From the NCBI GenBank assembly GCA_034723595.1, contig JAYEPB010000100.1, positions 1 through 32,591 on the forward strand: a DNA stretch of 32,591 nucleotides, in the 5' to 3' direction. The position numbers and the translations under genes were made by a program. The notes under the pieces are model-generated. The model saw nothing but the letters and a program-made list of their open reading frames with translations, was not told the DNA's origin and did no database searches. The first letter of the stretch is position 1. The number at the start of each line of letters is the position of its first letter. The stretch comes from Nanobdellota archaeon (lineage in GTDB: Archaea > Nanobdellota > Nanobdellia > Woesearchaeales > JAGLGH01). Shown here piece by piece: positions 4,538 to 5,342 of this stretch.

Positions 4538-4780
4538 TCAACTCCCATAAAGCTCAATGCAGCATTTCTTACAATCACTAGTATTAAATGTAGGACCTGG
4601 ACACTTCTTCCCTCCATTATCATAACAAACTCCACCCTGTGATCCACAAGTCTTTGTCTGCTTGCCAAAATCTCCCATCTTGCCTGAGAATATAAAGATC
4701 ATTATAACAAGCACAATTAAGACAAGAACTGCAATAATTATCATATTCAAACTCAATCCCTGTCCTTTCTTTTTTCTCAC
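4538..4780 (-). CDS. Six-cysteine mini-pilin, paralog 3 (class III signal peptide)
   Basis: (V->M)RKKKGQGLSLNMIIIAVLVLIVLVIMIFIFSGKMG... is followed by a head of about 45 aa with six Cys that ends in CC. I prefer the GTG at 4780, which has GGTGA 5 nt upstream, over the track GTG at 4789. The gene abuts the convergent Lrp gene with a 0-nt gap. Confidence 0.7.
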   Translation of the reverse strand: MRKKKGQGLSLNMIIIAVLVLIVLVIMIFIFSGKMGDFGKQTKTCGSQGGVCYDNGGKKCPGPTFNTSDCKKCCIELYGS

Positions 4781-4789
4781 ATCAATCAC

Positions 4790-5050
4790 CTACTTTATTG
4801 GCATGCAGCAATAGTTTCCGCCGTCAGGTTTTCCATCATTGTTTGCATCACATCCAGACAGGTAGATAGGATTCTCATTTTCAGCGCAGTCAGTAGCAAG
4901 CTCTGCGCATTTAGTTCCGCCGCAGGAAGATACCCCGCTTCTGAATTGTCCCATCTTTCCTGAGAAAATCACAATAAGCAGCACAAGCACAATCAGTGCA
5001 AGCACTGCTATAATAATAACATTCATGCTAAGTCCCTGGCCTTTTTTCAT
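4790..5050 (-). CDS. Six-cysteine mini-pilin, paralog 2 (class III signal peptide)
   Basis: MKKGQGLSMNVIIIAVLALIVLVLLIVIFSGKMGQF... has six Cys in the mature head (SCGGTKC..DC..GC..YCC). Confidence 0.75.
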   Translation of the reverse strand: MKKGQGLSMNVIIIAVLALIVLVLLIVIFSGKMGQFRSGVSSCGGTKCAELATDCAENENPIYLSGCDANNDGKPDGGNYCCMPIK

Positions 5051-5057
5051 TTTTAAG

Positions 5058-5342
5058 CTATGTAGATATACAGCACACGCCGTCTATCTGGGCTCCCTCA
5101 TTATAGTCGCTATCGCCGTCAAGATTGCATGCAAGATCATATCTTATAGTATCATAAGGTCCTGAACATTCTGTTCCTATATCAAACACGCATGTTCCTC
5201 TGTTTGTCTCGCATTTGTCCATCTCTGTTCTTGTCTTGCCAAGCTTTCCCATAAATATGACAGAAAGCACTACAAGAACAAGCAGGGCAATTGCTGCAAT
5301 GATTATAGTATTTATTGATAATCCTTGTGCTTTTTTTCTCAT
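5058..5342 (-). CDS. Six-cysteine mini-pilin, paralog 1 (class III signal peptide)
   Basis: MRKKAQGLSINTIIIAAIALLVLVVLSVIFMGKLGK... has six Cys (KCETNRGTC..EC..AC..VCC). A GGTG Shine-Dalgarno lies 5 nt upstream of the ATG. Confidence 0.75.
   Translation of the reverse strand: MRKKAQGLSINTIIIAAIALLVLVVLSVIFMGKLGKTRTEMDKCETNRGTCVFDIGTECSGPYDTIRYDLACNLDGDSDYNEGAQIDGVCCIST

Follow-up and report, generated by a model that had tools for sequence, protein, structure and literature searches.

The pilins PilA1-6 of Haloferax volcanii share a conserved hydrophobic domain, and EpdE of Methanococcus maripaludis is a very short major pilin, close in size to the predicted mature proteins of about 60-90 amino acids (aa) studied here. 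A glutamine at position +1 is typical of EppA-type substrates, and class III signals are also carried by the sugar-binding proteins of the Sulfolobus bindosome. H. volcanii has several major-pilin paralogs, and any single one of them supports pilus formation (PMC4858521). Genomes of DPANN archaea (Diapherotrites, Parvarchaeota, Aenigmarchaeota, Nanoarchaeota as well as Nanohaloarchaeota) hold unrecognizable 'dark-matter' pilins and pilin islands (PMC6393860). We analyzed a 32,591-nucleotide (nt) stretch of contig JAYEPB010000100.1 from a Nanobdellota archaeon of the Woesearchaeales (assembly GCA_034723595.1), hereafter the window, in which three tandem genes on the minus strand, P1, P2 and P3, encode small proteins with a basic leader, a hydrophobic helix and a six-cysteine head. 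We call these proteins mini-pilins, and on balance we somewhat favor the reading that they are precursors of the major subunits of a type-IV-pilus-like filament in a DPANN archaeon.

The Woesearchaeota and related archaea, which are abundant, uncultured and ultra-small, are thought to live on other cells. Lytic transglycosylases have been noted in Woesearchaeota, and an attack on bacteria or their murein has been proposed (PMC9723730; PMC12352652); the words 'pili' and 'pilin' are absent from the texts of both papers. Trans-defensins have been described from animals only, and from bacteria only cis-defensins (PMC11561630). Archaeal pilin-like proteins are a known kind. The mini-pilin family, its beta-defensin-like head, its size and the surrounding gene cluster appear to be undescribed in the searchable literature, where we found neither the family nor any link between pilins and defensins.

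Three tandem mini-pilin genes share one plan

P3 (5058-5342) is the first gene of the array and encodes 94 aa, with a predicted mature protein of 89 aa. It is followed after 7 nt by P2 (4790-5050; 86 aa, predicted mature 82 aa; orthologs in loci L001, L006 and L007), which abuts P1 (4538-4780, ORF, or open reading frame, to 4789). With such short spacing the three genes look like one transcription unit. The start of P1 is most likely the GTG at 4780, the second in-frame GTG of the ORF, which would give an 80-aa protein with the leader MRKKKG and has AGGTGA ahead of it; translation probably does not begin at the first GTG, at 4789. The NCBI protein is 80 aa long and agrees with the start at 4780. 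Another gene caller gave a truncated protein of 68 aa, and gene callers that cut the leader short in this way hide the class III signal.

The N-termini, with the predicted cleavage point given as a slash, are MRKKKG/QGLSLNMIIIAVLVLIVLVIMIFIFSGKMG for P1, MKKG/QGLSMNVIIIAVLALIVLVLLIVIFSGKMG for P2 and MRKKA/QGLSINTIIIAAIALLVLVVLSVIFMGKLG for P3. All three follow a common plan of a basic leader of 4-6 residues, then [K][G/A]-Q-G-L-S-x-N and a hydrophobic segment of 30 residues that ends G-K-(M/L)-G. Over the first 30 predicted mature residues, 18-24 of 30 are identical between paralogs. The tail behind this helix contains exactly six cysteines, spaced C-x6-C-x7-C-x9-C-x2-CC in P1, C-x4-C-x6-C-x11-C-x13-CC in P2 and C-x6-C-x7-C-x12-C-x17-CC in P3, with 3-6 residues C-terminal to the CC doublet. 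The head of P1 is the shortest of the three and its spacing is nearest to that of beta-defensins. A first-pass annotation of this DNA had described three adjacent paralogs with alike N-termini and a six-cysteine pattern ending in CC, and both descriptions hold. It had also described a short Cys-rich head of about 35-55 aa; the short Cys-rich head stands, and its size is corrected to a tail of 44-59 aa.

A large unannotated family in Woesearchaeota and their relatives

Relatives were sought with a profile of P1-P3. Word-indexed candidates yielded 761 relatives. When 1.84 billion representatives were scanned exhaustively with HMMER, approximately 4,090 clusters (50% identity) passed E<=1e-3, of which 1,600 passed E<=1e-10. 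No family member has a Pfam domain, and their only source name is 'hypothetical protein' from Woesearchaeota or Nanoarchaeota.

In an alignment of 70 sequences all six cysteines were invariant, together with a Gly two residues ahead of the second cysteine (C2). Exactly six cysteines were found in 117 of the 120 best homologs, and the six-Cys spacing fitted 117 of 120 parsed sequences. Among further 50%-identity representatives, six cysteines were present in 141 of 145, the framework ended in CC in 143 of 145, and the Gly at -2 of C2 (G-x-C) was kept in 134 of 141. Such invariance across the alignment, the homologs and the further representatives shows that the six-Cys pattern is not due to chance. 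An ORF scan of 86 loci found 153 mini-pilin genes in tandem arrays of 1-4, and these genes had six cysteines, or else four or eight, except for two probably spurious ORFs. The first-pass annotation had named a cysteine pattern not conserved in homologs as grounds for abandoning the pilin idea; in the homologs the pattern is conserved.

Matches in species-representative genomes came from metagenome-assembled genomes (MAGs) of Woesearchaeota, Nanoarchaeota, Nanoarchaeia and Pacearchaeota. The window itself derives from a brine metagenome, and relatives were found in cold-seep and marine-sediment metagenomes. As to a viral or mobile origin, a search of IMG/VR found no relatives on viral contigs. 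Many GTDB representative records titled 'uncultured Methanosarcinales archaeon' (L009, L011, L013, L020, L022 and others; binchicken co-assemblies) carry the Woesearchaeota-type cluster, and these titles are probably placeholder or mislabeled taxonomy.

A sister subfamily (L056, L071-L076 and L082-L085; e.g. L071:9992-10342) has the same leader and helix with a longer head. That head contains four cysteines (YG.C.P ... C ... CE...C.W), has no CC doublet and is apparently helical. From the sequences, heads seem to have been exchanged while the pilin helix stayed constant.

A class III-type N-terminus

The motif KK[GA]/QG[LI]S.N.IIIA... was found in 120 of 123 sequences, usually behind a leader of 4-6 aa, and was invariant in the 70-sequence alignment. 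Basic residues, [KR][GA], a predicted cleavage point and a hydrophobic helix follow one another as expected of a class III signal. In an hhalign comparison, the mini-pilin leader KK[AG]Q aligned with the leader of a minor-pilin-like family of the surrounding cluster (family 2, below), and [KR][GA] followed by a helix forms the N-terminus of about 15 co-clustered families, nearly every product of the cluster. A common N-terminus in so many co-encoded families, together with the hhalign match, argues for one processing enzyme. An AlphaFold2 model of P3 built on the 70-sequence alignment (predicted local distance difference test score, pLDDT, 82.5) contained a helix at residues 10-41, three short strands and one short helix. 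The earlier description of the triad as pilin-like is thus borne out by a class-III-type leader, a hydrophobic helix and a small head predicted to be rich in disulfides.

The bacterial type IVa and Flp pattern, with G/F or G/M at the cleavage site and a conserved Glu at +5, was not found: the predicted mature chain begins QG[LI]S.N, and its first 30 positions contain no acidic residue. Neither was the single disulfide loop of bacterial type IVa pilins, as each mini-pilin head has three potential Cys pairs.

Selection on helix and head

We compared P1-P3 of the window with their orthologs in L001, L006 and L007 by the pairwise Nei-Gojobori method, taking omega as the ratio of nonsynonymous (dN) to synonymous (dS) substitution rates. 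Pairwise omega was 0-0.10 in the N-terminal part and 0.03-0.19 in the heads, and dN was approximately 3-4 times higher in the head than in the helix. Each of the three paralog types is old and conserved in its own right. Purifying selection on both helix and head indicates that the genes are functional, and the low pairwise omega indicates that at this resolution the heads are constrained and not diversifying. Antigenic variation was therefore rejected on the pairwise values for the heads, and the suggestion of the first-pass annotation that the heads vary antigenically or host-specifically was not supported.

Promoter and Shine-Dalgarno leader

P3 is preceded on the minus strand by a TATA box, TTTAAATA, at 5385-5392 (43-50 nt upstream of its ATG), beside which lies CGAAAG at 5394-5399, similar to the transcription factor B recognition element (BRE). 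A Shine-Dalgarno (SD) sequence, AGAGGTG, is found at 5348-5354, 5 nt ahead of the ATG.

The same arrangement is conserved across loci. Of 70 first mini-pilin genes, 56 (80%) had a TTTAWATA box in the 120 nt upstream, compared with 10% of later mini-pilin copies, 0-6% of genes of cluster families 1-8, 10, 11 and 14, 21-23% for families 9 and 12, and 2.5% of background (random 165-nt windows). SD-like motifs preceded 89% of first mini-pilin genes. These results confirm that the array has its own promoter and SD leader, as the first-pass annotation had proposed. Within a long operon-like cluster, a stoichiometrically dominant subunit would be expected to have such a strong promoter to itself.

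Gene cluster around the mini-pilins

For the gene context, 1,467 ORFs from about 80 loci were clustered into families. The mini-pilins lie in a colinear, same-strand cluster of about 20 genes, the order of which is kept in approximately 50-60 of the 80 loci (Woesearchaeota and Nanoarchaeia MAGs). The cluster begins with family 21 or 25, then family 6, families 4, 3, 5 and 2 and one to four mini-pilins; it continues with family 1 (usually two copies) and a second set of mini-pilin-like genes, and ends with families 18, 11, 9 or 12, 7, 10, 8 and 14.

In the window the first cluster module runs on the minus strand from 21185 down to 6035. Its first gene (16803-21185) encodes a giant Cys-rich protein of 1460 aa with 95 Cys (6.5%) and a Sec-like N-terminus. 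It is followed by a pilin-like protein of family 21 (15447-16760; QKG/QITFF..., 437 aa) and by a second giant, of family 6 (8852-15406), with 2184 aa, 127 Cys (5.8%) and bacterial TSP3 calcium-binding repeats, which is a candidate adhesin. Across loci the family 6 giants are typically about 1,600 aa long. The 2184-aa protein starts with a CCCY motif and its TSP3 repeats are the sole recognizable domain; the 1460-aa giant has none. Next come minor-pilin-like family 4 (8329-8859; KKA/QITGQVF..., with a likely GTG start at 8859 and the ORF extending to 8907), pilin-like family 3 (7053-8147; KRG/SIEIQFNWIF..., 364 aa), minor-pilin-like family 5 (6541-7071; RKG/QVKMFES...) and minor-pilin-like family 2 (6035-6520; KKG/QMEI..., 6 Cys), the last of which was found in 63 loci. 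Profile searches of Protein Data Bank (PDB) sequences with families 3 and 2 returned nothing meaningful. Beyond the mini-pilins, the cluster goes on at 1-860 (minus strand), at the window's left end, with a class-III-like small membrane protein (672-860) and the beginning of a family 1 gene (about 1-675), which runs off the window.

On one contig of another metagenome (P0074; Joint Genome Institute, JGI, 3300072015) a 612-aa protein with a precomputed match to Pfam T2SSG, the pseudopilin G of type II secretion, is encoded at 13628-15466 on the minus strand, 3.3 kb downstream of the mini-pilins.

A beta-defensin-like head

We compared the head with the beta-defensin framework, taken as C-x4-8-C-x3-5-C-x9-13-C-x4-7-CC with G-x-C before C2. 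The mini-pilin heads show the six-Cys framework with median gaps of 6, 6, 12, 12 and 0 (C-x6-C-x6-C-x12-C-x12-CC). Many members match the classic spacing exactly, e.g. C-x6-C-x5-C-x10-C-x6-CC, and others have longer third and fourth loops.

Isolated heads were then searched against Pfam at E<=10. Defensin_beta (PF00711) was matched by 11 of 48 heads (best E 1.9e-4), Inhibitor_I68 (the tick carboxypeptidase inhibitor, which consists of domains with the beta-defensin fold) by 3 of 48, and Defensin_beta_2, Defensin_3 and Defensin_big by one each. Among the matches listed individually, Defensin_beta scores were 14.6-18.6 bits, below the gathering threshold of 21, and these sub-threshold matches covered positions 2-35 of the 36-position model. 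An artefact of Cys spacing was rejected as their cause: a single shuffle of the non-Cys residues with the cysteines held fixed gave 0 of 48 matches, so the likeness goes beyond Cys spacing. Searched against PDB sequences, the family profile had as its best matches gallinacin-11 (E 0.4) and crotamine (E 4.4), both non-significant. A head-only AlphaFold2 model of P1 (pLDDT 76) gave just two Foldseek matches in the PDB at E<=10, both of the beta-defensin fold and neither significant: tick carboxypeptidase inhibitor (2jto; E 5.9, template modeling score, TM, 0.48) and human beta-defensin-1 (2nlp; E 8.6, TM 0.24).

Natural variants point in the same direction. Both C2 and C4 are missing from two independent four-Cys variants, P0195 and L046:9941-10237, and P0105 lacks C3 and one of C5/C6. 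This co-loss, seen in three sequences only, is consistent with the beta-defensin pairing C1-C5, C2-C4 and C3-C6. The cationic charge of defensins was not found in the heads, which have a mean net charge of -3.3 and are negative in 86% of cases. The six-Cys module (C..GG.C...C...C...CC) also occurs as 2-3 tandem internal repeats in larger cluster proteins (L027:2650-3732, L069:10357-11475, L020:10767-11951, L081:10487-11050 and some family 1 members), which indicates an autonomous extracellular domain and not a pilin head alone.

On these sequences the head may be described as a beta-defensin-like module, a structural resemblance that is possibly convergent. Homology between the head and beta-defensins cannot be demonstrated, and convergence is no less likely. 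On a bolder reading the head would have a true beta-defensin (trans-defensin) fold and be its first example from a prokaryote, carried as a surface knob on the shaft of a hitherto unrecognized, type-IV-filament-like and Woesearchaeota-wide organelle with a giant adhesin tip and swappable pilin-anchored hydrolases for attaching to bacteria and breaching their walls; we regard this as doubtful.

The resemblance also raises the question of whether the mini-pilins are released as defensin-like effectors, with the helix serving for export or membrane insertion, as the hydrophobic N-domain does in big defensins, and the head acting on the partner cell as antimicrobial, enzyme inhibitor or ligand. 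The Pfam matches, of which those to Defensin_beta disappear on shuffling, the restriction of the Foldseek matches to the tick inhibitor and the human defensin, and the co-clustering of the genes with cell-wall hydrolases all speak for it. However, membrane-active defensins are cationic and the heads are acidic, the Defensin_beta matches listed individually lie below the cutoff, the Foldseek E-values are not significant, and it is the helix, not the head, that is most conserved. We consider released effectors very improbable.

Polymerizing subunits or surface peptides

Several results weigh against the filament reading. Foldseek found 0 matches in the PDB for the full-length model, and thus no solved pilin, and hmmscan of P1-P3 against Pfam and NCBIfam (E<=1) gave only spurious transmembrane-helix matches and no curated pilin model. 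No FlaI/PilB-type ATPase or TadC-type platform gene was found within 10 kb in the 80 loci or in the window; when the 1,467 ORFs were scanned for Walker-A motifs and multiple transmembrane segments, the sole finds were RadA-like ATPases, one A24 peptidase and one peptidase of the presenilin type. The prepilin peptidase gene of L023 (Peptidase_A24 + Arc_PepC), at 1.7 kb from the mini-pilins, speaks for a filament, and in no other locus of the 80, nor in the window, was a peptidase found within 10 kb. The host habitats (brine, cold seeps, sediments) are often anoxic or reducing, where extracellular disulfides need protection. As to the missing machinery, archaeal pilin loci often lie apart from the loci for the ATPase and TadC machinery (PMC4858521; 10.64898/2026.04.22.720090). 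Metatranscriptome contigs of the studies behind L032 (Saanich Inlet) and L077 (New Zealand groundwater) contained nothing from those loci, a result that is uninformative and does not indicate silence.

The lack of a linked assembly ATPase or platform would suit non-polymerizing surface peptides, anchored in the membrane by the helix, cleaved or not, with the six-Cys knob serving as a coat, receptor or docking module; the sugar-binding proteins of the Sulfolobus bindosome would be a parallel. The same N-terminus on many cluster proteins, enzymes included, may be a general anchoring or export device, and the tandem copies of the six-Cys module in larger proteins mark it as a general-purpose extracellular domain. 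However, the helix is too conserved for a simple anchor, with omega of 0-0.10 and near invariance across about 4,000 clusters; such extreme conservation agrees with subunits that pack helix to helix in a filament and are recognized by an assembly machine. A polymer would likewise suit the strong promoter of the array and its minor-pilin-like neighbors, and we regard surface peptides of this kind as unlikely.

The analysis shows the sequence features, the conservation of the family, its promoter and its gene cluster; for the filament that we favor, we infer cleavage, polymerization, disulfide formation and function from sequence, as follows. The precursors would insert into the membrane, and an A24 class III signal peptidase would cut the basic leader of 4-6 residues after K-[G/A], leaving an N-terminal Gln. 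A pilus ATPase and a platform encoded elsewhere would polymerize the subunits, with the invariant 30-residue hydrophobic helices as the filament core and the tails of 44-59 aa on the surface, each with three disulfides in the beta-defensin-like pairing. The dedicated consensus TATA promoter and the strong SD sequence would supply subunits in excess over their neighbors. Priming of the filament and formation of its tip would be the task of the four minor-pilin-like proteins and the giant Cys-rich TSP3 proteins, and the downstream pilin-like hydrolases would be accessories. By analogy with Haloferax PilA1-6, several subunit types may be co-expressed.

Pilin-like hydrolases and the role of the filament

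In other loci the downstream part of the cluster includes family 8, whose members have a class-III-like N-terminus, a conserved region of about 200 aa and a varying hydrolase domain (e.g. L067:15397-16539, L031:13205-14884, L013:16905-17948 and L012:16582-17568). The domains found were VanY/Peptidase_M15, Amidase_3, SLT, Amidase_2, Peptidase_M23, muramidase, 3D, glucosaminidase and phage-tail lysozyme. From its sequences, family 8 looks like a domain-swapping 'warhead' on a pilin-type anchor. Since the cluster in relatives extends to these pilin-like peptidoglycan hydrolases, the filament would most likely serve as an organelle for contacting or attacking host or prey cells.

The hydrolases would also fit a short pseudopilus or piston, like that of type II secretion, which exposes or pushes them through the envelope onto a bacterial partner. 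One major type with four minor families mirrors GspG with GspH-K, the hydrolase domains of family 8 (SLT, M23, M15/VanY, Amidase_2/3, muramidase) stand behind a class-III-like N-terminus, and a gene neighboring the mini-pilins on the P0074 contig has the T2SSG match; an attack of Woesearchaeota on bacterial murein has already been proposed (PMC9723730; PMC12352652). However, archaea lack an outer membrane to be crossed, and the hydrolases, whose genes lie outside the window, bear their own pilin-like N-termini and not Sec or Tat signals. A pseudopilus seems to us quite unlikely.

A filament that makes contact with other cells would bear on how these archaea attach to their partners and exploit them, a question that becomes testable. 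The family of about 4,090 unannotated clusters, with its cluster of about 20 genes, is a sequence-defined candidate for a contact filament and its accessories, and the murein hydrolases noted earlier in Woesearchaeota are now tied to a pilin-type route of export or anchoring. The small size of the mini-pilins suits synthesis and expression, the raising of antibodies, mass spectrometry of sheared filaments and use as a marker in cryo-electron tomography. If the filament reading is true, few globular domains known from type IV filament subunits would be as small as the head. Whether by convergence or by homology, a beta-defensin-like module with three disulfides in archaea bears on where the trans-defensin fold came from.

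Insertions and other genes in the window

Two insertions are particular to this lineage. The first, of 3.7 kb (839-4537), splits the cluster directly behind the triad and contains a 708-aa ORF on the plus strand, a MazE/PhoU-domain protein on the minus strand and an Lrp/AsnC regulator on the plus strand. The 708-aa ORF has a kinase-like HGENW...D motif and no Pfam match. This block is common to the window and L007 and is absent from L006 (approximately 92% identical DNA here) and L001, in both of which the sequence matching window positions 1-838 directly follows the triad. The second, a PAS-domain gene (5435-5992, minus strand, 185 aa), separates the minor-pilin module from the triad and is absent from L001, L006 and L007. 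It is preceded (about 5993-6060) by a diverged duplicate, approximately 80% identical, of the mini-pilin promoter and leader (GTTAAATA ... AGGATGTG ... ATG).

Divergent from the cluster, positions 21354-29503 hold two radical-SAM (S-adenosylmethionine) proteins, a glycosyltransferase/radical-SAM fusion of 691 aa, two peptidase-U32-like genes and two more glycosyltransferases. The block possibly encodes a glycan or modification pathway. Neither tRNA genes nor Rfam families were found in the window.

Comparison with known systems

Compared with the Sulfolobus bindosome, both systems have enzymes or binding proteins with pilin-type N-termini that are co-encoded with pilin-like proteins. In contrast, the cargo here would be peptidoglycan hydrolases, and no BasEF-like ATPase or platform gene lies nearby.

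The cluster also recalls the bacterial fimU-pilVWXY1E operons and GspG-K in its giant TSP3 protein, its four small pilin-like proteins and its small subunit, predicted to be abundant, with a promoter of its own. However, there is no detectable similarity in sequence or to PDB sequences, the leaders in the mini-pilin cluster are of the archaeal type, the mini-pilins have no conserved Glu5, and the cluster adds approximately 10 more pilin-like families.

With beta-defensins (those of vertebrates, crotamine, big defensins and tick carboxypeptidase inhibitor) the heads share the six-Cys framework ending in CC and the G-x-C; the full-model matches to Pfam below threshold, a co-loss of cysteines consistent with C2-C4 and C3-C5/6 pairing, and the non-significant Foldseek matches confined to the beta-defensin fold point to the same likeness. 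Unlike beta-defensins, the mini-pilin heads are acidic, have longer loops (median gaps 6, 6, 12 and 12), are fused to a pilin helix and come from archaea.

The differences from described archaeal type IV pilins lie in the match to no curated pilin model, in the absence of a linked ATPase or platform gene, in the DPANN lineage and in the head, which would be a three-disulfide knot and not a glycosylated beta-sandwich or a bare helix. In the basic leader ending in [KR][GA], the hydrophobic helix and the paralogs with divergent heads, the mini-pilins are like them.

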